Both the position numbers and the translations under genes were made by a program. A stretch of 64,000 bases of DNA, from contig CAZIAP010000003.1 of NCBI GenBank assembly GCA_964537315.1, positions 463 through 64,462 on the forward strand, read 5' to 3'. Under the pieces are notes generated by a model. The model did no database searches. It was not told where the DNA came from and worked only from the letters and a program-made list of their open reading frames with translations. Shown here piece by piece: positions 1 to 20,561 of the stretch. The stretch's first letter is position 1; each line of letters begins with the position of its first letter. The DNA comes from an uncultured Gammaproteobacteria bacterium. Its GTDB lineage: Bacteria > Patescibacteriota > Microgenomatia > Levybacterales > GWA1-39-11.

Positions 1-908
<908 letters not shown>

Positions 909-1096
909 GAATTGAGAAAATCAATCCACGATCTTTTCATTTGATACATTGCTTTGTCAGAATCTATAGTGCTCAACAATGTACTTATATAGTACATTTT
1001 ATTGCGCGCTTCAATTCTTCCTTGCACTGCATTCAACTGCAAAAGCACGTGAAAGTTCAACCGAAGTTGTTGATTAGTTTGCAGATTACTAACTTT

Positions 1097-1233
1097 TACC
1101 CTTAAGCCTTTCGGTCTTCTGAGCGATATGGAACCACCTCTTCCCTTTCCGAACAGAGTAGTGAAACATGTCAGCGCTTACGATACTAGGCAGTAGCCCG
1201 GGAAAATAAGTCAAGGCCGGGGGACTTAAGGGT
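1097..1233 (+). rRNA. rrf: 5S rRNA
   Basis: It lies downstream of the 23S end. 'ccgaacagagtagtgaaacatgtcagcgcttacgatactagg' matches the 5S core 'CCGAAC.CAGAAGTGAAAC...GCGCCGATGGTAG'. The terminal helix pairs 'acccttaag' with 'cttaagggt'. Confidence 0.7.
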
Positions 1234-4534: not shown

Positions 4535-4693
4535 ACTGAATTCAAAAGTTAAAAGTCAAAAAGCAAATTTATAATGCGTAAGACGAAATTATCTAAACTT
4601 CTTTACTTTTAAACTGCACTTTTGACTTCTTCCTTTTGATTTTTGACTTTCTTACGTTTCATTTCAATTAGATATTTATAATAATCACAAGAT

Positions 4694-6031
4694 ATGGCAA
4701 AGAATTCATCTTTATACGTATGTAATAACTGCGGGTATGAATCAGGCAAGTGGTATGGGAAATGTCCTGAGTGCAGTGCATGGAACTCATTTACTCAAGT
4801 TGCAGCACCTGATAAAAAAGCTGCTCGTTCTGCTCGTGGTCCGGTAGCTGAGCCTGTAAGCATAGGAACTATTAAAAGTGTAGCAGAAAACAGGACGAGT
4901 ACGGGTTTTGGAGAGTTTGATAGAGTTTTAGGCGGGCGTGATCAAAATATGGGAATTGTACCAGGATCTGTCATGCTGCTTTCAGGTGATCCGGGTGTAG
5001 GAAAGTCAACTATAATGCTACAGTTAGGTATTAATCTGGCGAGAGCTGGTAAAAAAGTAGTGTATATCACTGGTGAGGAGTCTGAGAGTCAGGTCAAGAT
5101 GCGATCAGAACGTGTCGAGACTGAAAAAGCACTTGAAAAGCTACCTTTATATATTCTTTCATCTACAGATATTGATGCTGCTCTGGAATCAGCAGAACAG
5201 ACTGTTCCTGATCTCCTTATAATTGACTCCATACAGACTATGGTGTCTACGGAGCTTACAGGATTCGCAGGTTCGATACCACAAATTCGTTATGCAACTT
5301 CCCGTTTGGTCTCATTTGCGAAAAAAAATAATATACCAGTATTTCTAATTGGTCACGTTACAAAAGAGGGGATGGTGGCAGGTCCAATGATTTTATCTCA
5401 CATGGTAGATACAGTACTATATCTTGAAGGAGAAGCTCTTACAGGTACAAGGATTTTACGTACATTTAAAAATAGGTTTGGTGACACTAGTGAAGTGGGA
5501 ATTTTTCTGATGGAAGAAAAAGGGTTAGTTGAGTTATCTGACGCATCATCATTTTTTGTAGATAAAAAAGATGGGGGAGTTCCGGGTTCATGTGTTGCTG
5601 TCGTGATGGAGGGAAGTAGACCATTATTAGTGGAGATTCAGGCACTTGTTGTTCCAAGCACGCTTGCATATCCAAGAAGAGTTGCGAACGGAATTGCCGA
5701 AAAACGGCTTGAAATGCTACTTGCGGTTCTTCAAAAGCATGCAAGGATTCCTGTTGAGCGAATGGATGTATTTGTAAACGTGGTAGGAGGTTTAAAAGTC
5801 CAAGAACCAGCAGTTGATCTTGCGGTTTGTATGGCAATTATCTCAAGTTTTAAGAGCAAAGCACTGTCATCCACTGTGGCAATTGCAGAAGTTGGACTAC
5901 TTGGAGAGTTAAAACACGTGGTAAACTTAGACAAGAGAGTTAAAGAAGCACAGAAACTTGGGTTTAAAAAAGTGCTGTCAGCAAGGGATGCACAATTCTT
6001 GAACAATGTTATAATAAAGAATATGTCATGA
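4694..6031 (+). CDS. radA: DNA repair protein RadA/Sms
   Basis: It has an N-terminal C4 zinc finger 'CNNCGYESGKWYGKCPECSAW', the Walker A 'GDPGVGKST', and a Lon-like C-terminal domain. Length is 445 aa. Confidence 0.9.
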   Translation: MAKNSSLYVCNNCGYESGKWYGKCPECSAWNSFTQVAAPDKKAARSARGPVAEPVSIGTIKSVAENRTSTGFGEFDRVLGGRDQNMGIVPGSVMLLSGDPGVGKSTIMLQLGINLARAGKKVVYITGEESESQVKMRSERVETEKALEKLPLYILSSTDIDAALESAEQTVPDLLIIDSIQTMVSTELTGFAGSIPQIRYATSRLVSFAKKNNIPVFLIGHVTKEGMVAGPMILSHMVDTVLYLEGEALTGTRILRTFKNRFGDTSEVGIFLMEEKGLVELSDASSFFVDKKDGGVPGSCVAVVMEGSRPLLVEIQALVVPSTLAYPRRVANGIAEKRLEMLLAVLQKHARIPVERMDVFVNVVGGLKVQEPAVDLAVCMAIISSFKSKALSSTVAIAEVGLLGELKHVVNLDKRVKEAQKLGFKKVLSARDAQFLNNVIIKNMS

Positions 6032-7581: not shown

Positions 7582-8739
7582 TTATCTTGCAAGGTACTCG
7601 ATTAACTCACTATAATTTGAGACAATTTTATTCCAGTCATATTTTTCTTTTACTTTACTTCGTAGTGCTTTACTGAGTTTAGAACGAACTTTTGGACTTT
7701 TAGTAAGCAGGGTGATCGCCTCATTTATTGACTTTTTATCTGGGTTAACTAATATTCCTGTTTTGTTGTGCTCAATAATTTCATTTGTTCCGCCTTTATC
7801 GGTTGCAATTACTGCACAGCCTGAGCTTCCAGCTTCAAGTAGTACATTCGGAAAGCCTTCATGGTGTAGTGAAGGGTGAACTAAAATATCTGTGTTAGCC
7901 ATAAGCTGTGCAACATCTTTTCTTTCCAGAGCTCCTGTAAAGTAGATATTTTCTACTGATTTTTTAGATAATTTTACGCACATCTCTCCATCTCCTGCAA
8001 AAATAACGTGAATATCAGAGTTTTTAGCCACAATATCTTTAACCGCGTCAAATAGTATTTGAGGACCTTTGGAAGGTATCATTCTTCCTACAAACGTAAC
8101 TAGTATGTCTCTGTTGTTGAGTTGTTTTTTAGCTTTTGGTAGTTTTCTAACACCTTGTCTTTTTCTTGGAGTGTAGAACTGTGTATCAACTCCTCCGTAC
8201 ATAATCTTGGCTTTAGGTATTCCTAGTGAGCTGAGGAAGGAAAATGTAGCTTGATTTGTAACAGTGACAGTATCGTAGAGTCGAGTGATAAGTGGAACCA
8301 GGTATACATCAACTGTTCTTGCAATTGCATTAACAAACCGTGAATCATGAATAGGGTGATGAGCACAGTGGTCAGTAAGCACTGACTTGCTTTTTGTGAG
8401 TTTAGCCACAATAGGAACCCACCATGAGCTTTCAAAAAAACGTGTATGGCTATTTATAATGTCGTACTTGTTTTTTTTAAATAACTTTCTTAATGTTTTA
8501 AACAATAAAAAGTAATTTGGTATGGCGAACTGACCAGTTAAAGGCTGCCAACATGGAACTCTGTGAATAGTCAATCCACGGTATTTTTCTGTTTTTTTGG
8601 CATTGTCAGTGTTATAGCACAGCACATCAACTGTAATGGATGGATCAGATTTCATTAAATGATAGTGCAGTTCTTCTGCGTACTGCTGACTTCCTCCTTT
8701 GTGAGGATAAAAATAAGGTGTAACTACGAGTATTCGCAT
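7582..8739 (-). CDS. glycosyltransferase family 4 (GT-B)
   Basis: It has the GT4 C-terminal motif 'EGFPNVLLEAGSSGCAVIATDKGGTNEII'. The N-terminus is 'MRILVVTPYFYPHKGG'. Confidence 0.8.
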   Translation of the reverse strand: MRILVVTPYFYPHKGGSQQYAEELHYHLMKSDPSITVDVLCYNTDNAKKTEKYRGLTIHRVPCWQPLTGQFAIPNYFLLFKTLRKLFKKNKYDIINSHTRFFESSWWVPIVAKLTKSKSVLTDHCAHHPIHDSRFVNAIARTVDVYLVPLITRLYDTVTVTNQATFSFLSSLGIPKAKIMYGGVDTQFYTPRKRQGVRKLPKAKKQLNNRDILVTFVGRMIPSKGPQILFDAVKDIVAKNSDIHVIFAGDGEMCVKLSKKSVENIYFTGALERKDVAQLMANTDILVHPSLHHEGFPNVLLEAGSSGCAVIATDKGGTNEIIEHNKTGILVNPDKKSINEAITLLTKSPKVRSKLSKALRSKVKEKYDWNKIVSNYSELIEYLAR

Positions 8740-8746
8740 AGCAGTA

Positions 8747-9556
8747 TTAGAAAAAATAGGTTGTAAAACTTTGAGCGAGGGATGAAATTCTGTCAGCAGC
8801 GTATTTTACTTGCTGCTTGCGGTCAACTTTATCGACTGTAAACCGTCTTTTAATAATGTAAAGCAGATGTTCTGTGCCTGTTTTCCATATATTTTGTTTG
8901 CTCATCCCAAACTGCCTGATAGTGTGTGGGATATGATACTCGGAAAAGTGTATATTGGGATGACATAGAGCGGCAAGTTTTATCTCCGGAGAAAAATTCC
9001 ATTCACCTCTGTGTACAGCTAACTTACCAATACATGATTTTTTCATTACCCACATACCGCTTAAAATGTCTTGAATTTGAATTCCATATAGTAGAGATAC
9101 TTGTAAGTTAAGTACTTTCACACCTAGTTGGCGTGTTCTTGAGATCGCGCGAGGATTATCTAACGGGAAACGTGAGCAGGATACAAAGTCCGCGTTACTT
9201 TTCTCCATATATGTAACTATATCTTTAATTGCTTCAAGAGGGTATGTATCATCACCGTCTAGCGCAACGATGATATCACCAGTTGCGTTCTTCATTCCTG
9301 TCTGGTGTGCGTAGCCGTAACCAACGCCATCAACATTACGTTTTTCGATAAAGACTTTTGCACCAAATGCTTTTGCAACTGCTGCTGTATTATCGCTAGA
9401 GTCATTATCTACCACTATAACTTCATCAATATAGGCTGGAAGTTTTTGCAACATAGAGTAGAGAGCAGTCTCTTCATTTCTGCATGGTATGATGAGTGAT
9501 AGCTTTTTTTTGTTTAACATAGGCGTAATTATAGCAAAACTATAGGTTAAAGTCAA
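8747..9556 (-). CDS. glycosyltransferase family 2 (dolichol-P-sugar/polyprenol-P-sugar transferase-like)
   Basis: 'LSLIIPCRNEE', 'VVDNDSSDNT' and the 'DGDD' (DxD) motif are present. An alternative start lies at 9520 (MLNKKK). Confidence 0.75.
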   Translation of the reverse strand: MTLTYSFAIITPMLNKKKLSLIIPCRNEETALYSMLQKLPAYIDEVIVVDNDSSDNTAAVAKAFGAKVFIEKRNVDGVGYGYAHQTGMKNATGDIIVALDGDDTYPLEAIKDIVTYMEKSNADFVSCSRFPLDNPRAISRTRQLGVKVLNLQVSLLYGIQIQDILSGMWVMKKSCIGKLAVHRGEWNFSPEIKLAALCHPNIHFSEYHIPHTIRQFGMSKQNIWKTGTEHLLYIIKRRFTVDKVDRKQQVKYAADRISSLAQSFTTYFF

Positions 9557-9561
9557 ACCAA

Positions 9562-11424
9562 CTATGGTTGCTTTACTTCAATTATTGCAACTGTCGGATT
9601 CTGATAAACAAGCTCAAAACGATTGGTGTCTTGCAATAAGTATTGAAGCGCTTTATAGTTATCCAGCGTCAGATCTGATGGATACCAGATATTGAAACTG
9701 AGTGATTCCTTATCTTGTGGGGCACTGTACTGCCATAGAAAGTAGCGTCCACTTATCGCAATCAAACGAGTATCGCTTCTACCTGTTAAGGCGTCATCTA
9801 TCTCATGGAGTAGCTGTGCAATCGATTGATGATCTGAGCTTTTTATTGCTTGATCAAGCTGAGTTCTGGTATCTATGCTCATATATGCTCCTCCAGGTGT
9901 ATTTACCATGCTTAAAGGCTCTATGATGTGCTGAGTTGCGGGATCAGAGATTAAAAGCGTATTAGTATCAGCATAATTTTCTTTTAAAAACTGAGCAGCT
10001 TGAACCTCGTTGGGGGAGATATTTGTATAGAAATCTCGATAACGTAGTATCTCTTTCCATCCGGCGGCATTGGTTGTAAATACAATTAACAGTGAGACAA
10101 CCAAAAGTAAGTATGCAGTATATCTTAAAAGAATAGGCTGAATGTAACGAATGAGTGTATAGATACCAACCGCAAGAATTATATGTATAAAAAATTTAGT
10201 TAGTACGTAAAACTTCATAACGTAAGGAATTTGCAGCAGGATGAGTGCAAAAAGACCAAGTGTAATAGTAAGGATAAAAATCTCTACCTCTCCTTTGGCT
10301 CGAAGAGTGGTTACGAGTCCTATCGGTACAAATAACGCTAGGAAAAATCCATACGTGCGAAGCATAACACGCAATTTTTCCTCAAAAGTGGGATTAAATG
10401 AAGCTGCCTCTCCAGCATTTAGAAAATCAAGCGGAAGATAGGCAGACAGAATAACTGCGGCTACCGCGAGTACAGTAATAGCGCCAATTAAAAACGCACG
10501 GTTAATGTGACGTGCAATAAAGAGTCTGAATTTGCTGTACAAATATATTGTCAGATAAACCACGACAGCGACAGTACCGATGATATAGTGATTTAAAACT
10601 AAGAAGAGTATACTGAAAAATACAAATGGAATTGAAGGCAGGCGACCTTTCTTAATCTCACGAAAGAGTTGAGATACCAGAAAAACAAATACAACGGCAG
10701 TAAATGTCTGGGGTATAAAAAATAGAGAAGTGAAACTGACATATGAATCAAAAATACCTGCAGCAAGTAGTATTGCGATATACGCAACGGCTTTGTTTTC
10801 AGTAACTTCTTTGGTAAGTAGGTATGATGCCATAATTACCATGAAAAAATGAATAAAACCTATCGCGCTCCAGTAGACAAACATATTGGTTGGATAAAAA
10901 ATCTGAGAGGCAGCAATTAGAGTATGATAAAACGATGAGTAGCCGTTAAAACCGAAGGTATCAGTTATGCGGGTAGTCATAAAATTAAACCTATTTTCAA
11001 AGATATTATTTACCAATGTTTGATGTTCAAGCATATCCCAGTTAAACGGGTAGGGACTATCAATTCTCCAGATGAAAAATATTACAGCTGCACATACAAG
11101 CGAGATTAGAGCAGGTATATGAAGATTTTGAACGCTGAGGTCTTTTCTTGGTAGAAAAAAGTTTATTATCAAGGACCCTCCTGCCATTATTCCGGTAGCC
11201 CATGAGAAGACGACAGAGAAGGAAAGTGCTGGGAATAAGGTAATCAGAATGTACTGTATTACAAGTGCAATAGCAAATAGTGAAAATCCTCCTGCTAAAA
11301 AGTAAGTTACAAAAGGGTAAGATAGCTCTTTTTTAATTACTTTTTGCACTAAAACTCGTCCGATACTGGTCGGAATAAGGTAGAAAAGTAATGCTTGTAA
11401 AATTGGAATTAAGATTTCGGTCAT
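9562..11424 (-). CDS. polytopic membrane protein, possible GT-C-type glycosyltransferase (ArnT/PMT-like), with C-terminal soluble domain
   Basis: It has about 13 predicted hydrophobic helices and is 620 aa long. It sits in an operon with the GT2 and GT4 genes. The family assignment is inference. Confidence 0.5.
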   Translation of the reverse strand: MTEILIPILQALLFYLIPTSIGRVLVQKVIKKELSYPFVTYFLAGGFSLFAIALVIQYILITLFPALSFSVVFSWATGIMAGGSLIINFFLPRKDLSVQNLHIPALISLVCAAVIFFIWRIDSPYPFNWDMLEHQTLVNNIFENRFNFMTTRITDTFGFNGYSSFYHTLIAASQIFYPTNMFVYWSAIGFIHFFMVIMASYLLTKEVTENKAVAYIAILLAAGIFDSYVSFTSLFFIPQTFTAVVFVFLVSQLFREIKKGRLPSIPFVFFSILFLVLNHYIIGTVAVVVYLTIYLYSKFRLFIARHINRAFLIGAITVLAVAAVILSAYLPLDFLNAGEAASFNPTFEEKLRVMLRTYGFFLALFVPIGLVTTLRAKGEVEIFILTITLGLFALILLQIPYVMKFYVLTKFFIHIILAVGIYTLIRYIQPILLRYTAYLLLVVSLLIVFTTNAAGWKEILRYRDFYTNISPNEVQAAQFLKENYADTNTLLISDPATQHIIEPLSMVNTPGGAYMSIDTRTQLDQAIKSSDHQSIAQLLHEIDDALTGRSDTRLIAISGRYFLWQYSAPQDKESLSFNIWYPSDLTLDNYKALQYLLQDTNRFELVYQNPTVAIIEVKQP

Positions 11425-12221
11425 AGTGCCTCCTCTGGATTATGTAAAATCTCGACTGTTATTGATGTTTCATGAGAGCTTCCCTCAGTAGTGAGTTCTT
11501 CGATCTCAATAAGTTTTGCATCCCTATTTATGCGCAATATCTGATTTGGATTTGCTCGCACAACTATCACAAATGATGCGTTGGGGTTGGTAATATATAC
11601 AGATCTGTCAGGGATAGGTACTACAAGTCTGTCTGTCTTGGGTGAGAGCGTAACGCCATAAGTTTGTGCAAATATATCCAAATCGCTTTGTTCCCAGTAG
11701 CTATATGCGTTAAGAGATTTGTCAAAGACAATATCATCTCCATTATATGAGAGAGTCATGCCCATCCTGCGAATTTTTTGAGGTTGTGCGAAAATAGTGC
11801 GTTGATACACAGTAACTCTATCTTCCTCAATTAAAGCTTTATATCGGGCATTAAGTTTGTCTGTAGTAAAGGTAACCGATGGACTACCTCCTGTGAGATA
11901 TGTTTTTACAGTATGAGCGATGTTTTCAAATTGTGTTTTTTCAAGATTTGTTTCGTACTGTTTGCTCTCAATTTCAGGAACTGAGATAAAACTGCTTCGG
12001 TTGTTTTGGGCATCAACAGTATAATCATTGAACGGTGAGAATCTGTAGTATAGACGTTTATAATCCTGAAATAAGGAGAGTCCGTCAGAGTAAGGTGCAA
12101 TCTGCATTGAACCTACCGCTGAGACCTGAGGATTATTTGGGAGTAATACTCCATAAACTGCTAGTATAAGCAGCACGCAAAAAACTATAAAAGATAATAT
12201 ATTCCTGCCTAATATATTCAT
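11421..12221 (-). CDS. hypothetical membrane-anchored protein
   Basis: It has an N-terminal TM 'ILSFIVFCVLLILAVYGVLL'. There is a 4-nt ATGA overlap with the downstream gene. Confidence 0.5.
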   Translation of the reverse strand: MNILGRNILSFIVFCVLLILAVYGVLLPNNPQVSAVGSMQIAPYSDGLSLFQDYKRLYYRFSPFNDYTVDAQNNRSSFISVPEIESKQYETNLEKTQFENIAHTVKTYLTGGSPSVTFTTDKLNARYKALIEEDRVTVYQRTIFAQPQKIRRMGMTLSYNGDDIVFDKSLNAYSYWEQSDLDIFAQTYGVTLSPKTDRLVVPIPDRSVYITNPNASFVIVVRANPNQILRINRDAKLIEIEELTTEGSSHETSITVEILHNPEEAL

Positions 12222-12223
12222 GG

Positions 12224-12550
12224 TTACTGTTGTGGGAGATCACTCCATACGCCATCCCACGTGCGAACACCTTTTTGCCAAGCACACTCTCTGACTTGCT
12301 GCTCCATAGGCCTGCTTATGGTTTGTCCGGTTGTGGCTGTTGTTGTCTCTTGGCGGTAAGCCATGGCACAGTCTTGTATTGCTTGTAGTTCGAGCGCTCG
12401 TTGATTTTGTGCAAGCATAGTATCAACCCGTTCAAGGGCATTTACTGCACCAAAAATCAGTCCGCCTAAAACGACGGCTATAGCCACAGCAATTAGAATA
12501 TTTTTTATTATTTGCATACTTAAAAAATCGAACATTACAAATCTCACCAC
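12224..12550 (-). CDS. small membrane protein (hypothetical)
   Basis: It has a single TM 'IIKNILIAVAIAVVLGGLIFGAV'. An alternative start lies at 12517 (MQIIKN). It is the first gene of the glycosylation operon. Confidence 0.45.
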   Translation of the reverse strand: MVRFVMFDFLSMQIIKNILIAVAIAVVLGGLIFGAVNALERVDTMLAQNQRALELQAIQDCAMAYRQETTTATTGQTISRPMEQQVRECAWQKGVRTWDGVWSDLPQQ

Positions 12551-12669
12551 CTTTTCTTATCAAAGTACTCAATGTTAATTAGGTGAAGAAAGATTGATGT
12601 AAGAGATTACATCTGATTGAGTATTTAGATAAGACGAGAAACGTAGATTGCAAGCAAAGCTTGTGAGAG

Positions 12670-12710
12670 TTACCCTCTCCGCAAATTGCGGAGAGGGTAA
12701 ATATTGAGGA
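12670..12710 (-). terminator. GC-rich hairpin downstream of paralog P1
   Basis: This is a perfect 12-bp stem 'taccctctccgc' / 'gcggagagggta' with loop 'aaatt'. There is no clear U-tract. Confidence 0.45.
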
Positions 12711-12721
12711 CAATGTCCTCG

Positions 12722-13867
12722 TTACGGATTAAACACTGTACCTTCTAGTTCATCAGCTGACGAAGCGAAGGTAAAGGTGACCTCGTAACCGACCGGACCG
12801 ACGGAACCAATATAAATTGATTCTACGTCATCATCCAGAATTACGAGAGCCTTGCCATCTACACGACAATTGTCACATGTGATAGTTCCATCGTCATGTA
12901 GAGACCATACGCGGATAACCGGGTTCCCGCTGATTTGAACAGCACCGTTGCCATGGATTTCCATGGCAATCGCTGCCTCACCCAGAGGACCTCGTTCATG
13001 CGTAAAGGTAAGGACATTACCATTTACTCGTACGTTACCCTTGGAAGTGGCTGCGCATACAGTGAAGCTCGTGACCTGATACTCAGTGCAGTTTTCTAGG
13101 CTCTTGCCTTGACCATGCTTTGGTGCTTCATTAGAAGGCGGTGGTGGTGGAGTAGTTCCTCCATCATCATCACAACCATCCACATATCGCCACTCAAAGT
13201 AGTGCTGGCCGACATTGCCGAACTGAACCTGGTGCTCAGGCGCGTTGTCTGGAGTATATGTCAAGGCTTGGCGTTCACCAAGCTGTACATATACCTTTTT
13301 CATCACACCATCAACTGGTGCGACTGTTTCCATAACTGGAGAGGAGGCGAGTCCGACCTGTTGTAGTCGTCCAGGCTCACTCATGAACTCAGCGAAGTCT
13401 GATCCCCACGAATATCCCCCATTTCGGAAGACATCCTTGAAGTCTCCATAGGAGAGTGGGTTAACTTGACCCGGGTCACCTGCCACATGAACGTCAGATG
13501 GGGAACATACGACAAAGTCGTTATCCCCAACCTGCATCATGCCGGTAACGAGTTCTGCTACCAGTAGACCGTTCGTTACACGCCAATTAGCGGATTCATC
13601 ATACGAACGATCTTCCATTCTCGTTTTGTCAAAGTACTGGACGGCGCGGACACCGCCTGGTGCTTCAACATAGTCCTCCTGACCAATGAAGCGCGCAGGT
13701 TCATAAACCGGACCCCATCCCAGTTCGTTACTCAACCATTGTTCCCGAAAGTTCGAGTGGTTGAATCTGTCGGGCGTGGGATAGTAGTGATCAGCGAAAG
13801 CAGATGCTGACACGCTGATAACTAGCAAGGCCACGATGGCCAACGCCCCAACAAATTTTGTGCGCAA
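12722..13867 (-). CDS. secreted modular protein, paralog P1 (module A + Pro-rich linker + module B)
   Basis: It has a signal peptide 'RTKFVGALAIVALLVISVSASAFA' and a TTG start with SD 'aaagga'. Module A ('VQYFDKTRMED...VTNGLLVAELVTG...VGLASSP...VQLGERQALTYTPDN...HYFEWRY') is shared with P3. The C-terminal module B ('IYIGSVGPVGY') is shared with P2. Confidence 0.75.
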   Translation of the reverse strand: MRTKFVGALAIVALLVISVSASAFADHYYPTPDRFNHSNFREQWLSNELGWGPVYEPARFIGQEDYVEAPGGVRAVQYFDKTRMEDRSYDESANWRVTNGLLVAELVTGMMQVGDNDFVVCSPSDVHVAGDPGQVNPLSYGDFKDVFRNGGYSWGSDFAEFMSEPGRLQQVGLASSPVMETVAPVDGVMKKVYVQLGERQALTYTPDNAPEHQVQFGNVGQHYFEWRYVDGCDDDGGTTPPPPPSNEAPKHGQGKSLENCTEYQVTSFTVCAATSKGNVRVNGNVLTFTHERGPLGEAAIAMEIHGNGAVQISGNPVIRVWSLHDDGTITCDNCRVDGKALVILDDDVESIYIGSVGPVGYEVTFTFASSADELEGTVFNP

Positions 13868-13902
13868 TTTTTTGTCCTTTCTGCGCTACAAAAAAAATGT
13901 TT

Positions 13903-14102
13903 GGACCAAATGGCCCAAGAGAAAAACAAGTCAATTCACTTATTTTCCTTTCGAGCCTTTCGGTCCTGAATAATTTCTACGTTTCTCGTTTGTTAAGGTA
14001 CCTGAGTAATCAGTAATACATTCATGCAATATGAAGTATTCCTGAAAATCTCATCTTTGATCTCAAACATTTGCTTGAAAGCAAAGATGAAACGAGAAAC
14101 AC
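13903..14102 (-). promoter_or_regulatory. conserved ~200-bp leader/promoter element, copy 1 (upstream of P1)
   Basis: It is near-identical to copies at 14770-14969 and 16515-16656. The terminal inverted repeats are 'acgtttctcgtttg' and 'aaacgagaaacac'. Nested hairpins are 'tcatctttg...caaagatga' and 'ttgcttgaaagcaa'. On the minus strand it reads 'TTAACA-N17-TTATTC'. Confidence 0.55.
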
Positions 14103-14122
14103 AGCTTCACTAGTGTGAGATT

Positions 14123-14153
14123 AGGGTCTCTCCCGAACTGCGGGAGAGACCCT
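14123..14153 (-). terminator. GC-rich hairpin downstream of P2
   Basis: It is a perfect 13-bp stem 'agggtctctcccg' / 'cgggagagaccct' with loop 'aactg'. Confidence 0.45.
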
Positions 14154-14179
14154 ATAAGGTAGCTTACGCTACCAACAGA

Positions 14180-14710
14180 TTAATTCCGTGTCCAGTAATT
14201 CCACGCATATGGAATGGAATCAATGAACTGTGCACCTTCAAAGTCGCTCAGCGACCCAAAGGTGAGAGTGAACTGATGTCCGACCGGACCGACAGACCCA
14301 ATGTAGAATGCACTGGTTCCATGATCCGGCAACTGGATGACGATGTTACCATTTTCGTCTGCTACGTATCGGTCAGCATAGGCATTGTTCAAGTCGGCGT
14401 AAAAGTATACGTCGACTGCTCCGCTGATCCGGATAGCTTCTACGCCACCGGGATATGTCCGTACGATAACAGACATAGACGCTTCACCCATAGGAGCAGG
14501 ATTGTGTGCGAACGTAACGACGTTACCTTCAACACTAACTTCTCCTCTAGAAGGCATAAGACAAACGTTATGACCGCCGATCCACTGAAAGCCTCCACAC
14601 CTGTTCTCCAAAGAAGGAACAGAAGGGGCATTGGCAGATGCAACTGCCGGAATGACGAGCGCCAGGATCACAGCTACGAACGTCACGATGCGAAAATGAA
14701 TCTTGCGCAT
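14180..14710 (-). CDS. secreted protein, paralog P2 (module B only)
   Basis: It has a signal peptide 'IVTFVAVILALVIPAVASA'. 'GNVVTFAHNPAPMGEA' and 'FYIGSVGPVGHQFTLTF' are homologous to the P1 C-terminus. Confidence 0.7.
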   Translation of the reverse strand: MRKIHFRIVTFVAVILALVIPAVASANAPSVPSLENRCGGFQWIGGHNVCLMPSRGEVSVEGNVVTFAHNPAPMGEASMSVIVRTYPGGVEAIRISGAVDVYFYADLNNAYADRYVADENGNIVIQLPDHGTSAFYIGSVGPVGHQFTLTFGSLSDFEGAQFIDSIPYAWNYWTRN

Positions 14711-14769
14711 TGCTTTGTCCTTTCATGCGCTAAGACAATAAATTCATCAGACTAACGTAGTCTGAATAG

Positions 14770-14969
14770 GACCAAGTGGTCCAAGAGAAAAACAAGATTT
14801 TATCCTTATTTCCCTTTCGGACCTCTCGGTCAAAATAAATACTGTGTTTCTCGTTTGTTAATGTACCTGAGTAATCAGGAGTAGTCTTTATTCTATAACA
14901 AAGCACTCCTGAAAATCTCATCTTTGATCTCAAACATTTGCTTGAAAGCAAAGATGAAACGAGAAACGC
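14770..14969 (-). promoter_or_regulatory. conserved leader/promoter element, copy 2 (upstream of P2)
   Basis: It has the same architecture as copy 1. It shares the 'ggaccaagtggtccaagagaaaaacaag' hairpin and the 3' core 'cctgaaaatctcatctttgatctcaaacatttgcttgaaagcaaagatgaaacgagaaacgc'. The minus strand reads 'TTAACA-N17-TTATTT'. Confidence 0.55.
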
Positions 14970-14981
14970 AGGTTATGTATA

Positions 14982-15029
14982 GAGTGGACCCCGCTAAGCG
15001 GGATCCACTCAGTTTGGTAGCTAAGCTAC
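14982..15029 (-). terminator. two tandem hairpins downstream of P3
   Basis: The hairpins are 'gagtggaccccgc taa gcgggatccactc' and 'ggtagc taa gctacc'. Confidence 0.4.
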
Positions 15030-15032
15030 CGA

Positions 15033-16427
15033 TTAGCGAGCATCAATAGTATTGATGTGCTCGCTTCTGTCATACGGTCCCCACCACACAAGAGACTCGT
15101 GAGTGGGAGCAGCAGTGGTGTAATCCACCGCAATTGAGACAACCCCGTCGTTTGGAAGGATGATAGTAATATCACCCATGTCTGATGTTGCCTGACTGAC
15201 AACATTACCGGAGTTAGTCACAACCGTGACCATACTGTTCGGAGCGATCCGAACATTAATGGCTACAGGGCCTGAAGCTCCAGCCAGGAACTGATCGATG
15301 TACTTTGAAGTAGTCAGAACACCCAAGCACCATCTGATGTGGGTATCTGTTCCTCTGTACACGATCTGTCCAGGATTACCATGGTCAGTCCAGTTGCCTC
15401 CCGAATGATTTCCGAGAGCAAGTGTGACAAACCAACTATCTGCGCCTCCCCAGTCAGGAGCCTTGAACAGGTGTTCATTGAACACGCGGTGAGTCCACGT
15501 ATTCTGCTTGAACTCTTCGATTACTTTGCTGTCCATCTTGTCCAACTTTCCTGGTTCAGGAAAGTAGCAAGGCTCTGGAGCAGACTTAACCGGTGGCTCT
15601 GGCTTGGGTTCATGAACCGGCGGTTCAGGTTTTGGCTTGTGAACCGGTGGTGTAGGATCTGGACCGTGTCCAGGATCTTCAAGCTTACCGGCACACCCGT
15701 CTTTCCCATACCTCCATTCAAAGTAGTGGGCACCGACGTTGCCCCACTCAACCTGCCAACCGTGAGGGTTGTCAGGAGTGTATGTAAGAGCACGGCGCTC
15801 ACCCAACTGTACGAGCACCTTCTTTATGGTGCCGTTAACTTTGGCGTCAGTCCACCAGGCGGGAGAAGAGGCAAGGCCAACTTTATATGTGGCGTTGTCT
15901 TTTGACATGAACTTCTGAAACTCAGGAGCCCAGTCATATCCACCTGGTTTGATATCGTTGTAGAACTTCGCGTAGGTCAAGGCATCATGACCTTGATCCA
16001 TATCACCTGCGACAGGCATATCAGACGGTCTGCATTCAATGAACGCATCATCGCCAATTTGCATGCGGCCTGTGACCAGCTCTACAACAAGTAATCCGTT
16101 AGTGACAGCCCAGTCACCCTTAGAGCGGTAACTATTATCCTCCATACGGGACTTGTCGAAGTATTGGACTGTTCGGAAGCCTTTCGGAGCTTCTTTGTAG
16201 GGTTCTGATTTGAAGTCATATGCGACTTTCAGTGCAGGACCCCACGTCCAAGACTTGGCTTCTTTTCCGTCAATGACGGATTGATCATCCTTCTCCCAGG
16301 TATGCTGAAAGTTCTGATGGTGAAAGCTCGGCTTTTGATAATCCGATGAGGCAAGTGCCACCATCGGAATGAGTAGAGCGGCAATCATCGTTACCAGAAC
16401 GATGATTCCCAATCGTTGTCTGCGCAT
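15033..16427 (-). CDS. secreted modular protein, paralog P3 (module A + Pro/Lys-rich linker + module C)
   Basis: It has a signal peptide 'LGIIVLVTMIAALLIPMVALA'. Module A ('VQYFDKSRMED...VTNGLLVVELVTG') is shared with P1. The linker is 'PTPPVHKPKPEPPVHEPKPEPPVKSAPEP'. C-terminal module C ('WTHRVFNEHLFKAPDWGGADSWFVTLALGNHSGG...HESLVWWGPYDRSEHINTIDAR') is shared with P4. Confidence 0.75.
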   Translation of the reverse strand: MRRQRLGIIVLVTMIAALLIPMVALASSDYQKPSFHHQNFQHTWEKDDQSVIDGKEAKSWTWGPALKVAYDFKSEPYKEAPKGFRTVQYFDKSRMEDNSYRSKGDWAVTNGLLVVELVTGRMQIGDDAFIECRPSDMPVAGDMDQGHDALTYAKFYNDIKPGGYDWAPEFQKFMSKDNATYKVGLASSPAWWTDAKVNGTIKKVLVQLGERRALTYTPDNPHGWQVEWGNVGAHYFEWRYGKDGCAGKLEDPGHGPDPTPPVHKPKPEPPVHEPKPEPPVKSAPEPCYFPEPGKLDKMDSKVIEEFKQNTWTHRVFNEHLFKAPDWGGADSWFVTLALGNHSGGNWTDHGNPGQIVYRGTDTHIRWCLGVLTTSKYIDQFLAGASGPVAINVRIAPNSMVTVVTNSGNVVSQATSDMGDITIILPNDGVVSIAVDYTTAAPTHESLVWWGPYDRSEHINTIDAR

Positions 16428-16514
16428 TAAAATTTCCTTTCATTGCGCACAATACGGTTTGGACACATCGTCCGTCAAATAGACAAGCTAATATCTACTT
16501 AACGGACGACATAT

Positions 16515-16656
16515 CTTATTTCCGTATATTTCTACGTTTCTCGTTTGTTAAAGTGCTGAGTAATCAGTAACACATCCATGCAATATGAAGTATTCCTGAA
16601 AATCTCATCTTTGATCTCAAACATTTGCTTGAAAGCAAAGATGAAACGAGAAACGC
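16515..16656 (-). promoter_or_regulatory. conserved leader/promoter element, copy 3 (upstream of P3; lacks the first ~60 bp of the unit)
   Basis: 'tttctacgtttctcgtttgttaaagtgctgagtaatcagtaacacatccatgcaatatgaagtattcctgaaaatctcatctttgatctcaaacatttgcttgaaagcaaagatgaaacgagaaacgc' is ~95% identical to copy 1. Confidence 0.55.
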
Positions 16657-16741
16657 ATATCTCTATTCACTGACCGTGCTTCGTATCAAATGTTGTCGGT
16701 TCAAATACCGACGATTTAATACATGACAATCATGAGTAGAG

Positions 16742-16776
16742 TATCCAAGGAGCCCCACAGAGCGGGACTCCTTGGA
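16742..16776 (-). terminator. GC-rich hairpin downstream of P4
   Basis: It has a 10-bp stem 'atccaaggag' / 'ctccttggat' with a 15-nt loop. Confidence 0.4.
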
Positions 16777-16786
16777 TTAGATGACT

Positions 16787-17833
16787 CTAGCGAGCATCAA
16801 TAGTATTGATGTTCTCGCTTCTGTCATACGGTCCCCACCACACAAGACTTTCGTGAGTGGGAGCAGCAGTGGTGTAATCCACTGTAATTGAGACAACTCC
16901 ATCATCCGGTAGGATAATGGTGATGTCACCTGCATCCGAGGTTACCTGAGAATGAGCTCCTGAAGGTCCATTCACTGTAACCACTGAGTTCGGAGCGATC
17001 CGAACATTAATGGCTACAGGACCTGAAGCTCCAGCCAGGAACTGATCCACATACTGTGAGCTGGTAAGAACCCCCAAGCACCACTGAATGTGAGTGCTTG
17101 TGCCTCTGTATACAATCTGACCAGGATTGCCATGATCAGTCCATGCACCGCCTGAGTGATTGCCCAGGGCAAGTGTCACGAACCAACTATCTGCGCCTCC
17201 CCAATCAGGAGCCTTGAACAGATGAGGATTGAACACTCTGTGGAACCACTGTCCGTAAGATGCCAACTCAATCTCTGTTTTCGGCATGTCGTCAAGATTC
17301 CCCGAAGCAGGGAACTGGCAGCTTTGTCCTGTCTGCTGTACCGGTTCAGGCATCGCTGGTTCTTGATCAGGTTCATCGTCGACGATTGCAACATAAGTGC
17401 AAGCGTCTTCAACGTCTCTGTCAAGCTCGTAACCATCTCTGACTTCGCAGTCATCGTGGTTGAACTCATCAGGTTCGTCGTCGACGATTGCAACATAAGT
17501 GCAAGCGTCTTCAACGTCTCTGTCAAGCTCGTAACCATCTCTGACTTCACAGTCATCGTGGTTGAACTCATCAGGTTCAGGCGTGCGTGTAGGATCATCT
17601 CGTACAGGAGAAGGACTAGGCTCTTCGTCATCATTGACGTCAATGCCTATACATTCTTCTTCCTCTACTGAGCGATCAATGTCAATTACTCCGACACAGT
17701 CGGAGAGATCGAATTCAACATCGTCCTCACCGTCTGCATTGACGCTACAGGCTGAAAGCATGAGCATCATAGCGATGAAAACGGCAAGGAAGGGGAACGT
17801 CTTTTGGTTCATCGTAGATCCCTTCTTGCTCAT
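16787..17833 (-). CDS. lipoprotein, paralog P4 (acidic tandem-repeat linker + module C)
   Basis: It has a lipobox 'MLMLSAC'. Acidic Cys-containing 34-aa units 'DEPDEFNHDDCEVRDGYELDRDVEDACTYVAIVD' occur twice. The C-terminal ~155 aa are ~80% identical to the P3 C-terminus. Confidence 0.75.
   Translation of the reverse strand: MSKKGSTMNQKTFPFLAVFIAMMLMLSACSVNADGEDDVEFDLSDCVGVIDIDRSVEEEECIGIDVNDDEEPSPSPVRDDPTRTPEPDEFNHDDCEVRDGYELDRDVEDACTYVAIVDDEPDEFNHDDCEVRDGYELDRDVEDACTYVAIVDDEPDQEPAMPEPVQQTGQSCQFPASGNLDDMPKTEIELASYGQWFHRVFNPHLFKAPDWGGADSWFVTLALGNHSGGAWTDHGNPGQIVYRGTSTHIQWCLGVLTSSQYVDQFLAGASGPVAINVRIAPNSVVTVNGPSGAHSQVTSDAGDITIILPDDGVVSITVDYTTAAPTHESLVWWGPYDRSENINTIDAR
17371..17574. repeat. 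2 x 102-bp near-perfect tandem direct repeat inside P4
   Basis: 'gttcatcgtcgacgattgcaacataagtgcaagcgtcttcaacgtctctgtcaagctcgtaaccatctctgacttc(g/a)cagtcatcgtggttgaactcatcag' occurs twice. The copies differ by 2 nt. Confidence 0.85.
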
Positions 17834-17850
17834 ATGAGCTAGGCTATGAC

Positions 17851-19182
17851 TTATCGGCGTCGACGTTGTCTGTTGATAGTTCGGACCTGAGACTTTTCTT
17901 CCTCAACCTCTTCGTTCTCTGATACCTCAGTATCTCGACTACGCATGAGGATAAGGATTCCCAGAGTCAAAAGTCCGAATACAACGGCTGCTGCTACAGG
18001 AGGGAACCAAAGGTAAGCTTCGCGACCGAAGTCCATCTCGACGTCCGCTATAAACAAATAGAGTCCGATGAGAAAGAAGACTACGGCTGCGATGACTGCT
18101 GCCGCACCTGCAATACTTAGCAAGTTGCTAGCAATCACACTTTTGGTTGCTTGACGCACCTCCCGAATAGCTGTTGAAGCCATTCGTTTGGCTTCTTTCA
18201 ATCCCTCATCTAGCTGTCCTATATGGACTGTATGCTGATTAAGGGTACGTTGTTGGTCTTCTTGAACTCGATCAGTTTCTTGAAATTTCTCTGCCGTTGT
18301 TTGAAGAAGACTGCGTATGTCGCCGATTTCCCGTTCATGCCGAGTAATCGACGTGTCGTGCTTATCCACTTGTTCGAAGCGAGTTTTGAATTCGTTTCTC
18401 ATAGAGCGGATTTCATCTAACACCGGATCTGTTTCTATAGGTGCTGGAGTGATATACACTTGAACGCCGATTCTAGCCACATCCCCTTGACTGTCTTTTA
18501 CTTCCACGACAAATGCATGCCGTCCAGTTTCTAACCCCTTTGTGGAGCCAGAGATATGACCGTTCTGGTAGAGGTGAAGACCAGGCGGAATTTGTTCCGC
18601 ACTCCAATGGTACGGAGGAGTTCCACCTTCCACCTCAAGAGTTCTATTGAGGAACTCTCCTTGACGAATCTCAACGACATTATCCCCAAATACTCTCAAT
18701 GGTTCGGGTTCTTCAGCAATAACGACAGGAGTAGTTTCTTCTGTCATTTCTTCCCCCTCATCTTCTTCAGGACCACCAACAGTATAGGTAGTGGCCTTAA
18801 TTTCCGGTTCTTCCGCCATTTCTTCCTCCTCTTTAACTTCCTCAGGTTCAGGAAGTGGTATGGGTTCAATGGTTTTCCGTACAGGAATCGGTTGATAATC
18901 CGCTACAGCTTCCTTATCTGGCTTGAGGTTGATGAATATGTTTATTCTATTCCTCAAGATGGACTTTGTACCTTTCGTACTAAGTCCCAGCTTTGCTGCA
19001 GCGGTGCGTATCGGTCGATAAGTGAGATCAGGATCATTGATATAATCCTGAAGTTCAGCCCATGTCATAGGTGGTTGAACGCGTATAGTCGTAGGCTTTC
19101 TTGTTGCCTTTCTACTACGAACTATTGCACTAACGATGCCGATTCCAAGTAGGAGTGAAATGATCTTTTTAGCTTTCTCCAA
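17851..19182 (-). CDS. membrane-anchored surface protein (SAP-like motif, acidic linker, Ig-like module, coiled coil, C-terminal TM hairpin)
   Basis: It has an N-terminal TM 'IISLLLGIGIVSAIV' and a SAP-like motif 'AAKLGLSTKGTKSILRNRI'. An acidic linker 'EPEEVKEEEEMAEEPE' is present. There is a He_PIG/cadherin-like Ig motif 'GGTPPYHWSAEQIPPGLHLYQNGHISGST'. Two C-terminal TM helices are present. Domain names are inference. Confidence 0.6.
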   Translation of the reverse strand: MEKAKKIISLLLGIGIVSAIVRSRKATRKPTTIRVQPPMTWAELQDYINDPDLTYRPIRTAAAKLGLSTKGTKSILRNRINIFINLKPDKEAVADYQPIPVRKTIEPIPLPEPEEVKEEEEMAEEPEIKATTYTVGGPEEDEGEEMTEETTPVVIAEEPEPLRVFGDNVVEIRQGEFLNRTLEVEGGTPPYHWSAEQIPPGLHLYQNGHISGSTKGLETGRHAFVVEVKDSQGDVARIGVQVYITPAPIETDPVLDEIRSMRNEFKTRFEQVDKHDTSITRHEREIGDIRSLLQTTAEKFQETDRVQEDQQRTLNQHTVHIGQLDEGLKEAKRMASTAIREVRQATKSVIASNLLSIAGAAAVIAAVVFFLIGLYLFIADVEMDFGREAYLWFPPVAAAVVFGLLTLGILILMRSRDTEVSENEEVEEEKSQVRTINRQRRRR

Positions 19183-19299
19183 CTGATTTTTCCCTTCGTT
19201 TGGTTAAGGTTAATTCCGACTCTTGGCAGAGTGCATCAGAAGATGCGCTTTTCCAAGTACCGGAGTTGGCAGCCTGAGAGAGTTTTCCGACTGCCAAAT

Positions 19300-19345
19300 C
19301 CGGCACCTGATGCCAAGAATATTTTTGCGTTTCTCGTTTGTTAAG
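19300..19345 (-). promoter_or_regulatory. partial copy of the paralog promoter motif upstream of the 17851-19182 gene
   Basis: The plus-strand 'gcgtttctcgtttgttaagg' on the minus strand reads 'TTAACAAACGAGAAACGC-...-TATTCT'. This is the same -35-like box and spacer as copies 1-3. Confidence 0.4.
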
Positions 19346-19558
19346 GAGCAATTGCGTAGCAAGTTGCGACGCATCCGCCTCTGGCGGAAAAGCTCAATTT
19401 ATGTAATGACTCCCCGTTCTCTGCGCAATGCAGGTACGAGCATCAAACATAAAATTCCAAGACTTTATGAGTCTAGGGAGAGTAGCTTTTGTATTTGCGG
19501 TTGGACGTGCGAGTAGGTATTTTAAGCAACTCTCTCTATACTCATGAGTACGTTTAGG

Positions 19559-20251
19559 TTAGCGGGTAGCCTTACGGTTCAGGAAGAGACCAAGCGCTCC
19601 TGCCGGAATGAGTGCTGCAAGTGAAAGAATACCAGCTCCTGTCTGAGGAGTTTGTTTTAGTGGTGGAGTTTGCTGAACAACTGGTCCTCCATCTTTTTGT
19701 GGCTGATTTTTTTCAATACATAGCTGTGTAGAGTCTGTAGCAGAGTGACCGTTCTGAGTAGCACGCACGTTATTAACAACACAAGTTACTGATCTGTCAG
19801 TAGGCAGATTATTACTTTCTGCAGCTTTAACAGTGATTGTTCCTGTATGTGACTGTCCTGGATTAAGTCTTTCAAGAGAGTAGGTAACTTCTTTTCCATT
19901 ATTTCTTCCTCCACTTACCCATGTAAGGTGGTCTGGAAGAGTATCGACTACATTGATATTTTCAATAGTGGTATCTCCGGTATTTTTGATGATAATACGA
20001 AAAGCAATTGTGGCACCCGGAGCAAATTTTTCGTCATTTGCACCAAGGTTATTTACAAATTCTCCGCCTTTAGTAGGTTTTTGAACCTGTTTATCAATAT
20101 TGAAAGAGATTCTCTCATCGCAGATTTCTCCACCGTAGTATCCTCCACCGTAAATAACTTCACATTTAGATCCTCCTGCATTTACCACAGAAGCGGCTCC
20201 TGCGAAGAGTGCAGTTGTTACAAAAAAGAGTGATGTACGTTTAAAATTCAT
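19559..20251 (-). CDS. cell-surface protein with C-terminal LPXTG-like sorting signal
   Basis: It has a signal peptide 'MNFKRTSLFFVTTALFAGAASVVNA' and a DUF11-like beta domain. The C-terminus 'TPQTG' is followed by the hydrophobic 'AGILSLAALIPAGALGLFL' and a basic tail 'NRKATR'. The track ORF starts at 20308. Confidence 0.6.
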   Translation of the reverse strand: MNFKRTSLFFVTTALFAGAASVVNAGGSKCEVIYGGGYYGGEICDERISFNIDKQVQKPTKGGEFVNNLGANDEKFAPGATIAFRIIIKNTGDTTIENINVVDTLPDHLTWVSGGRNNGKEVTYSLERLNPGQSHTGTITVKAAESNNLPTDRSVTCVVNNVRATQNGHSATDSTQLCIEKNQPQKDGGPVVQQTPPLKQTPQTGAGILSLAALIPAGALGLFLNRKATR

Positions 20252-20561
20252 ATTATTTGATTGTTTATCGACTTGTACACTGCCCAGTGCAAGATATAAA
20301 TATAACAATGTAATAGGACAGTAAGATTACTTAATTGACTGCTTGGCAGTATAACATAGGCATTTGCTCGGTGTCAAGTACTATAAGCCATTTTAATGTA
20401 GCGATATTATATTTACTATAAGACGCCGAGTTGACGATTAATACTCAATACTATGAGGTTTTAAGTCTAATATGGTAAATTTGCTTTACTGAGTAAGCTA
20501 ATAAACACGAAATATTAACTAGCATTTCTTACCAAATGCTCATTTAATAATAGAAGAGGTC

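Follow-up and report, generated by a model that had tools for sequence, protein, structure and literature searches.

A cluster of modular exported proteins beside a glycosyltransferase operon in an uncultured bacterium

Surface proteins of modular build, diversified through duplication and the swapping of domains, are already well known. S-layer-associated proteins of Gram-positive bacteria follow an SLH-domain logic, receptor Ser/Thr kinases of the PASTA type (PknB family) sense cell-wall fragments through their PASTA domains, and extracytoplasmic glycosylation can be the work of three-component systems such as GtrA/B/V, CsbB/GtcA/YfhO and Ppm1/Pmt. How does a cluster of uncharacterised surface proteins fit among these? 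Here we describe four neighbouring genes, P1 to P4, in a 64,000-nucleotide stretch of DNA from an uncultured bacterium (contig CAZIAP010000003.1 of assembly GCA_964537315.1, positions 463 to 64,462; hereafter the window), which encode exported proteins assembled from three recurring modules, A, B and C. The cluster is no new kind of system, but the domain families A, B and C and the operon linked to them are undescribed in the libraries that we searched. It apparently arose by expansion of a single conserved gene whose slot adjoins a glycosyltransferase operon, and we infer, with a probability of roughly 0.55, that its products are envelope-anchored, ligand-binding surface proteins, probably binding glycans, in which an anchor and a stalk carry a head.

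The P1 to P4 proteins and their modules

A sequence-only reading of the window had proposed four exported paralogs built from common modules, joined by Pro-rich or acidic repeat linkers, each bearing a signal peptide or a lipobox and none belonging to a characterised family. The four open reading frames (ORFs) lie on the minus strand exactly where that reading had placed them, and each of these points holds up in the results below, except that modules A and C are longer than had been supposed. The genes and their parts are as follows.

P1, 12722-13867, minus strand: ORF of 381 aa, with Sec signal peptide, module A, Pro-rich linker and module B
Module A of P1, 13172-13795, minus strand: aa 25-232
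Module B of P1, 12725-13102, minus strand: aa 256-381, a divergent jelly-roll domain
P2, 14180-14710, minus strand: ORF of 176 aa, with Sec signal peptide and then module B only
P3, 15033-16427, minus strand: ORF of 464 aa, with Sec signal peptide, module A, Pro-rich linker and module C
Module A of P3, 15693-16343, minus strand: aa 29-245, an alpha/beta domain, possibly of LGFP-like units
Pro-rich linker of P3, 15576-15692, minus strand: aa 246-284, PPVHxPKPE repeats
Module C of P3, 15036-15575, minus strand: aa 285-464, a jelly-roll beta-sandwich
P4, 16787-17833, minus strand: ORF of 348 aa, with lipoprotein signal, acidic Cys-containing repeats and module C
Tandem repeat of P4, 17366-17579, minus strand: between lipid anchor and module C (Tandem Repeats Finder)
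Module C of P4, 16790-17329, minus strand: aa 169-348

Pairwise BLASTP recovers all three shared modules. P1 and P3 align through module A with 47% identity over 275 positions (E 2e-73), the module proper spanning about 210 aa (P1 25-232, P3 29-245; 52% identical) rather than about 160. Module B is shared by P1 and P2 at 37% identity over 133 aa (E 2e-18), and module C by P3 and P4 at 75% over 197 aa, rising to 79-80% over a 180-aa core (E 1e-102), so that C measures about 180 rather than about 155 aa. Family profiles match module A of P1 at E 4e-66, module B of P1 at E 2e-60 and module C of P4 at E 1e-96. The similarity lies outside the linkers, in globular regions that are modelled with a predicted local distance difference test score (pLDDT) above 90. 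P1 to P4 are real genes, since they have homologues elsewhere and show purifying selection, with ratios of nonsynonymous to synonymous divergence (dN/dS) of 0.21 for C and 0.18 for B.

Neither a known enzyme family nor any other described family was matched. Pfam, NCBIfam, PHROGs and PDB sequences, queried with each protein alone and with profiles for the three modules and for a sub-unit of A, gave no significant match. The best NCBIfam result, choice-of-anchor E (NF033208), was obtained with P3 only and reached 13.6 bits (E 0.061) against a curated cutoff of 23.8 bits. In Pfam, P1 to P4 had no match, and thus none to CE2_N (PF17996), to families of carbohydrate-binding modules (CBMs) or to cupin families, and 21 C domains yielded only sub-threshold matches to DUF5114 (5 members, best E 0.029). 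No PHROG matched P1 to P4, a search of 2.9 million viral contigs (IMG/VR) found no relative of C, and literature searches on LGFP domains and on Patescibacteria surface proteins brought up nothing on these domains.

To assess export signals, we combined inspection with a scan for hydrophobicity. In P1 to P3 an AxA-type cleavage site follows an N-terminal hydrophobic segment, the signal peptides ending in ...SASAFA/D in P1 (hydrophobic N-terminus, residues 1-28), ...AVASA/N in P2 and ...MVALA/S in P3, where the slash marks the cleavage site. The N-terminus of P4, MNQKTFPFLAVFIAMMLMLSAC, fits by inspection the lipobox pattern [LVI][ASTVI][GAS]C, with a lipobox at L26-S27-A28-C29 (LSAC) and before it a K-containing n-region and a hydrophobic segment (11-34). 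Equivalent lipoboxes occur in many relatives of the C family; neither lgt nor lspA was seen among the genes scanned in the 64-kb window. The source gene call for P4 (P0007, 327 aa) begins at Met22 and cuts into the signal peptide (window 17747-17833), and a start at Met1 or Met8 makes the lipoprotein signal complete. By these signals, P1 to P4 are predicted to be Sec-exported envelope proteins, with cleavable signal peptides on P1 to P3 and a lipoprotein signal on P4.

The linkers are short, Pro-rich or acidic, and poor in Ser and Thr, and P2 has no stalk at all. In the AlphaFold2 (AF2) model of P3, the Pro-rich PPVHxPKPE linker is disordered (pLDDT <50 at residues 252-276). The 102-bp tandem repeat of P4 (2.1 copies, 97% matches) encodes a 34-aa acidic unit, containing two Cys, twice over.

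Module C defines a very small family. When 1.84 billion representative proteins were searched exhaustively with its profile, 64 clusters were found, and C occupies the C-terminal end in all 64. Aligned examples are 53-83% identical, 37 columns are invariant in 21 sequences, and the conserved polar and aromatic positions comprise Trp, His, Arg and Asp residues; the polar residues H313, R358, D419, E444, D453 and R454 are strongly conserved. C is preceded by a lipoprotein or Tat-like signal, by an N-terminal transmembrane (TM) anchor, or by a cytoplasmic domain and a TM segment, and anchor and C are usually separated by a long Pro/Thr/Ala-rich linker, with occasional SH3, He_PIG, TIG or PKD domains. 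One cluster of the 64, represented by P0202, joins a Ser/Thr kinase through one TM segment and a linker to an extracellular C. This architecture predicts that C forms a stalk-mounted head outside the cytoplasm; in P0202 it takes the position of a sensor.

Module B is very rare, with five sequences altogether; a scan of JGI metagenome contigs added no relatives and a word-index search with P2 added only one. It lacks the N-terminal part of C and the W311/H313 region. AF2 models of C (pLDDT >90) and of B (core 85-92) are all-beta sandwiches, and their neighbours, sought in the PDB, are weak (Z at most 7.1) and overlapping: the N-terminal domain of CE2 enzymes (2waa/2w9x), Ape1 (8gld), RetS (2xbz), CBM61 (2xom), CBM29, GOLD domains, and CENP-C and other cupins. 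Since both models are all-beta and share these neighbours, we assign B and C to one fold. In hhalign comparisons, B aligns with a narrow C alignment at 76% probability and with broad C alignments at 90.7% and 92.6% (E 1.2e-6 and 4.5e-7, 117-127 columns). P0191, which couples A to a C-like domain, is matched in the same region by both family profiles, at 8e-16 for C and 1e-4 for B, and it ends in ...YAWSN, like the PYAWN tail of B (a 'YxW' tail). Because of the hhalign results, the double match and tail of P0191 and the chromosomal slot that B and C have in common (see below), we conclude from sequence comparison that they are distant homologues within a single jelly-roll superfamily, with B a divergent offshoot. 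A regular-expression scan of 91 C and five B domains found neither cupin motif 1, G(X)5HXH(X)3-4E(X)6G, nor motif 2, G(X)5PXG(X)2H(X)3N, and an HxH of any kind is present in 4 of the 91 C domains.

Module A is a confidently modelled alpha/beta domain in P3, whose AF2 model has a pLDDT of 85 as a whole and two well-folded domains. A database search with P3 matched 657 proteins, mostly from Chloroflexota and Thermomicrobiales and with many different C-terminal domains. Among the 120 matches listed, 76 contain A, which starts within residues 1-87 in all 76 and sits directly behind the signal peptide. Named carriers come from Thermomicrobiales and other Chloroflexota, with the addition of P0053, labelled Candidatus Levybacteria; A spans about 260 aa in named carriers owing to an insertion, which copies of the type seen in the candidate phyla radiation (CPR) do not have. 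Its fusion partners include propellers and glycosidases (NHL, PD40/DPP-IV, GH5, GH10), hydrolases of the serine beta-lactamase and metallo-beta-lactamase types, and FG-GAP, CE2_N and Ig-like domains. Standalone A proteins of about 290 aa also exist, and one metagenome-assembled genome (MAG) can hold several A proteins with differing partners (e.g. R3A46_06725 and R3A46_10525). Judging by these matches, A is a widespread N-terminal domain of secreted proteins of Chloroflexota and CPR bacteria and is not private to the cluster, and its architecture suggests, by analogy, an envelope-anchoring module with an SLH-like role.

What kind of domain might A be? A comparison of folds in the PDB gave a weak structural match to the cell-wall-binding LGFP domain of MytA/PS1, two LGFP-like motif units can be discerned in A by eye, and a sub-unit of about 70 aa, which aligns with the C-terminal unit of A, is found singly before C in other proteins of the family. 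An internal duplication of A is suggestive by eye, but hhalign of the two candidate units, which pairs VQYFDKSRME with VQxFERRxLTY, is not significant (E 0.44). PF08310 (LGFP) had no hmmscan match in 27 A-containing sequences at E up to 10, nor in P1 and P3 alone at E up to 1, and PS1 was not recovered when the PDB was searched with profiles of A or its sub-unit. Because PF08310, the PDB profile searches and the internal-repeat test give no statistical support, A is not assigned to the LGFP family. The precomputed Pfam annotation of two A-containing matches, P0058 and P0073, lists PF27111. This family probably covers the last 150 aa or so of the two proteins and not A, since other A proteins do not bear it.

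When module C of P3 is compared with that of P4, synonymous divergence (dS) is a mosaic over a 179-codon alignment: codons 91-110 and 151-170 are near-identical as DNA (dS 0.08-0.18), as is the 3' end by DNA alignment; codons 41-80 are saturated (dS >2) although the protein there is identical. This pattern suggests local gene-conversion tracts between the two modules over strong purifying selection. The G+C content is 0.45-0.48 at window positions 12000-20000, and the flanks have 0.37-0.39. In the spacers between the clustered genes (171-359 bp) the G+C content is likewise 0.37-0.39, which is the genomic value, so the raised G+C of the cluster is a coding-composition effect. Since the spacers are long, each gene probably has its own promoter.

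The slot beside the glycosyltransferase operon

Gene order in the window runs from an M23 peptidase and Rho through a DUF11 (CLIPPER) protein, a 443-aa He_PIG membrane protein, P4, P3, P2 and P1 to the 108-aa, 266-aa and 620-aa proteins and two glycosyltransferases of families GT2 and GT4, and then to PIN-TRAM, RadA, S1 and others. The features that flank the cluster are listed here.

Operon beside the cluster, 7582-12550, minus strand: conserved, with five genes, whose products are the next five entries
108-aa TM protein, 12224-12550, minus strand: motif SRPMEQQVRECAxxKGV, four conserved Cys
266-aa TM protein, 11421-12221, minus strand
620-aa protein, 9562-11424, minus strand: about 14 TM segments
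GT2, 8747-9556, minus strand
GT4, 7582-8739, minus strand
443-aa neighbour, 17851-19182, minus strand: N-terminal TM segment, SAP-like stretch, He_PIG (E 7e-6), coiled coil and two C-terminal TM segments
DUF11 protein (CLIPPER in Pfam), 19559-20308, minus strand: 249 aa, PF01345 at E 8e-10, the upstream border of the variable slot

The operon may form a unit, hitherto undescribed, for extracytoplasmic glycosylation or for assembling a polymer; the family of its 620-aa protein has 38 members by word-index search. In all eight related genomes examined (L001, L004-L009 and L013), a gene ending in C or B adjoins the operon, or that part of it which the contig holds. In L004-L008 a C-ended gene adjoins the block of 620-aa protein, GT2 and GT4, and in L004, L007 and L008 the genes for the proteins of about 100 aa and 266 aa are kept between them. 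L001 is rearranged, with one C gene adjoining the gene for the ~100-aa protein and the operon genes lying within 5 kb on mixed strands. On the short contigs L009 and L013, a gene ending in B or a C-like domain lies directly upstream of the first operon genes; L009 extends to GT2 and a cut gene, probably GT4, and L013 stops inside the gene for the 266-aa protein. The content of the slot varies as follows.

L005-L008: a single gene of the anchor-stalk-C type
L001: two C genes
L004, the closest relative (61-87% identity in the flanking genes): only two genes, TM-stalk-C and A-C
L009: A-B (P0011)
L013: A-C' (P0191)

The set of four in the window is the largest seen, related genomes having one or two such genes, and relative to L004 the B-bearing P1 and P2 are extra. 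P0011 of L009, an A-B protein, occupies the position of P1 directly upstream of the operon. The L004 orthologue of P3 is 72% identical. At the position of P4, L004 encodes a C module that is 83% identical behind an N-terminal half that is wholly different, with a TM anchor and a Pro/Thr stalk in place of the lipobox and the acidic repeats. Because a nearly unchanged C here stands behind a different N-terminus, this pair is direct evidence of module replacement. Elsewhere the modules are combined as A-C (P0002-4, P0040, P0191), A-B (P0011, P0053), B alone (P0122), anchor-stalk-C in many proteins, and A with unrelated enzymes.

These data return us to what the sequence-only reading had made of the cluster. 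The module shuffling that it proposed is borne out by the other combinations elsewhere and by the differing N-terminus in the P4 equivalent of L004. Its picture of a combinatorial family of three modules stands in part: the family is real, modular and exported, but B and C are related and share one jelly-roll fold, and A is not local to the cluster. It had further taken the proteins to be surface or secreted proteins, plausibly for interaction with a host or the environment; they are indeed predicted to be exported, and the slot beside a glycosyltransferase operon points at least equally to the cell's own envelope.

On the other side of the cluster, the gene for the 443-aa protein stops 17 nt upstream of P4. 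Three proteins of the C family (P0051, P0164 and P0193) combine He_PIG and TM segments with C, the first two with a SAP-like start, and the 443-aa protein resembles the He_PIG-bearing C proteins weakly (30% over 83 aa, E 0.006). The gene may also belong to the shuffling set or may represent, with P4, a split or recombined He_PIG-C architecture; that it is the split N-terminal half of a C protein is not established, as the similarity is weak and at the level of He_PIG only. In L004 the place of the 443-aa protein is taken, at positions 3891-5605, by a pair of unrelated ORFs (214 and 230 aa), so the slot is variable on this side also. The 230-aa ORF has a zinc-ribbon-like CxxC...CxxC.

The DUF11 protein is syntenic in L001, L004-L006 and L008 and was not found on the short L007 contig. 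Its tail, with PQTGAG, a TM segment (223-245) and basic residues at the end, constitutes a sortase-like C-terminal signal, and it has a weak match to the isopeptide-forming fimbrial domain TIGR04226 (E 0.001). Farther along the window, two giant minus-strand ORFs at 28431-36782 and 37375-58239 encode 2783 and 6954 aa; modules A, B and C were not found in them at E <0.01.

Which organism carries this locus? An origin in the CPR, or Patescibacteria, whose cells are ultra-small, is plausible on the basis of two source labels, the Candidatus Levybacteria label of P0053 and the 'BH09PAT2' soil-bin tag of a homologue of the 620-aa protein, which we take to denote Patescibacteria. This is at odds with the titles of related MAG contigs, those of L004-L008 (CAYVAJ010000006.1, CAZEVT010000001.1 and others) reading 'uncultured Gammaproteobacteria bacterium', which is likely a placeholder or erroneous taxonomy. 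Window positions 1-911 are the 3' end of a 23S rRNA gene, with 911 nt spread over 519 model positions (2407-2925, Rfam); the approximately 390 extra bases are possibly an intron or insertion. A 5S rRNA gene follows at window positions 1110-1222. In L001, a LAGLIDADG ORF lies about 1.2 kb from a stretch that matches the 23S 3' end of the window. The extra 23S bases and this ORF are counted here as further signs of a CPR origin.

Function and alternative explanations

In the anchor-stalk-head model that we favour, the jelly-roll domain B or C would be a ligand-binding head, most likely for a glycan, and a flexible Pro-rich or acidic stalk would keep it off the membrane. P4 would be tethered by its lipid anchor and P1 and P3 by module A, acting as a non-covalent envelope-attachment domain; P2, which has no tether, would presumably be soluble or associated with a partner. 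The four copies may have arisen by duplication and N-terminal module swapping, with some gene conversion. The proteins might recognise, organise or receive the glycan made by the operon, or the same type of head might bind the surfaces of other cells.

Several points weigh against this model. Glycan binding and surface location are predictions from sequence and structural models, and adjacency to a glycosyltransferase operon does not prove a functional link. The 620-aa protein has no match in Pfam or NCBIfam and none to the GT-C, PMT or YfhO families. The anchoring role of A is a guess from architecture, with no sequence link to LGFP and a repeat test at E 0.44; the standalone A proteins could equally be enzymes, and A-only genes in Chloroflexota have unrelated neighbourhoods with no common context. 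B, which is without the W311/H313 region, may not share the ligand of C.

A different account holds that P1 to P4 are host-attachment adhesins of an episymbiotic CPR cell, with heads that bind the surface of a host bacterium and whose expansion and swapping diversify its reach or specificity. The surface-exposed architecture of anchor, stalk and head would suit this role, as would the differences in copy number and N-terminal parts between close relatives, the source labels pointing to Patescibacteria/Levybacteria and the giant surface-protein-like ORFs nearby. The head, however, is unusually conserved for such a function (60-83% identity across genomes, dN/dS 0.21) and shows no hypervariable patch as expected of host-specific adhesins, the position of the gene is fixed beside an envelope glycosyltransferase operon, and related domains occur in settings that are not episymbiotic, in Chloroflexota-type proteins and behind a Ser/Thr kinase; we consider adhesins possible but unlikely. 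The constant adjacency to a polytopic membrane protein, GT2 and GT4 also admits the reading that P1 to P4 are substrates or products of the operon, O-glycosylated envelope or S-layer-like coat proteins whose Pro/Thr stalks are glycosylated by the 14-TM protein with a lipid-linked sugar made by GT2. Stalks rich in Pro, Thr and Ala are present in most family members and the arrangement is like that of the three-component systems named at the outset, but the lack of any match between the 620-aa protein and the GT-C, PMT and YfhO families, the short linkers of P1 to P4 with few Ser and Thr, and the stalkless P2 make this distinctly unlikely.

Could B and C instead be enzymes? As cupin or double-stranded beta-helix proteins (sugar isomerase, epimerase, lyase or dioxygenase), they would act on an envelope polysaccharide, with A or the stalk positioning them. 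Their top structural neighbours include KduI, oxalate decarboxylase-like proteins, RmlC-type epimerases and phosphomannose isomerase, and the polar residues H313, R358, D419, E444, D453 and R454 are strongly conserved. These matches are weak, however, and are equalled by non-catalytic CBM, GOLD and RetS-type domains; both metal motifs are missing, with an HxH in so few C domains; B does not have the region of the conserved His; and the location behind a receptor kinase suits a sensor better, so that we hold catalysis to be improbable. As for origin, one might suspect that the cluster is foreign DNA, either an island gained recently or a receptor-binding cassette from a phage, in view of the G+C of 0.46-0.48 at 12-20 kb against flanks of 0.37-0.39 and of some viral jelly-roll proteins among the weak structural neighbours. 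The spacers nonetheless carry the genome's own G+C, relatives show synteny at the slot, there was no sign of an integrase, of a tRNA or of repeat borders, and the PHROG and IMG/VR searches were negative, all of which largely refutes a foreign or phage origin and leaves it a very small chance.

Beyond the anchor-stalk-head model itself, we speculate that the C/B protein is a dedicated extracellular component (a lectin, an acceptor or an organiser) of an undescribed assembly system for an envelope glycan or glycoprotein, whose other parts would be the two smaller TM proteins (one of ~100 aa with the Cys motif, one of 266 aa), the 620-aa protein, GT2 and GT4. Such a system would be specific to certain lineages, in the CPR and some Chloroflexota, and A would be a new envelope anchor with a role like that of SLH domains in Firmicutes. 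We regard this extension as tentative, and the odds as being against it.

Significance and comparison with known systems

The work yields three definable families: A, which is large and 'always first after signal peptide' in Chloroflexota; C, which is very small and highly conserved; and B, a rare offshoot. Should A prove to be an envelope anchor, the annotation of many hypothetical secreted proteins of Thermomicrobiales and CPR bacteria would benefit, and A would mark enzymes that are kept at the surface. The pairing of a C/B gene with an operon for unannotated membrane proteins and glycosyltransferases offers a testable entry to the largely uncharted envelope biology of the CPR. That A, C and the operon occur in CPR sequences and in Chloroflexota-type ones alike is modest evidence that these lineages share, or have exchanged, a set of envelope genes.

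Set beside described domains, B and C differ from the RmlC-like cupins in that the metal motifs are missing in 96 of 96 domains, in being secreted and mounted on stalks, and in having no Pfam cupin match. With jelly-roll CBM and sensor modules (2waa/2w9x, 8gld, 2xom of CBM61, 1gwk of CBM29, 2xbz of RetS) their models have the general beta-sandwich fold in common; like these modules, C is an extracytoplasmic, terminal add-on domain, and it also has conserved aromatics. The LGFP repeats of PF08310 (MytA/PS1 of Corynebacterium glutamicum, 6sx4 and 6swz) usually form C-terminal arrays of tandem repeats of about 54 aa, whereas A is N-terminal. C and PASTA are unrelated domains and a single kinase fusion was seen among the 64 C clusters, but in that fusion, P0202, C sits where PASTA kinases have their PASTA domains. 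The comparison with SLH domains is an analogy only, no sequence or structural similarity having been seen, and it lies in the logic of the architecture: like SLH, A would be an attachment module beside the signal peptide, joined to many unrelated catalytic partners and often present several times in one genome.

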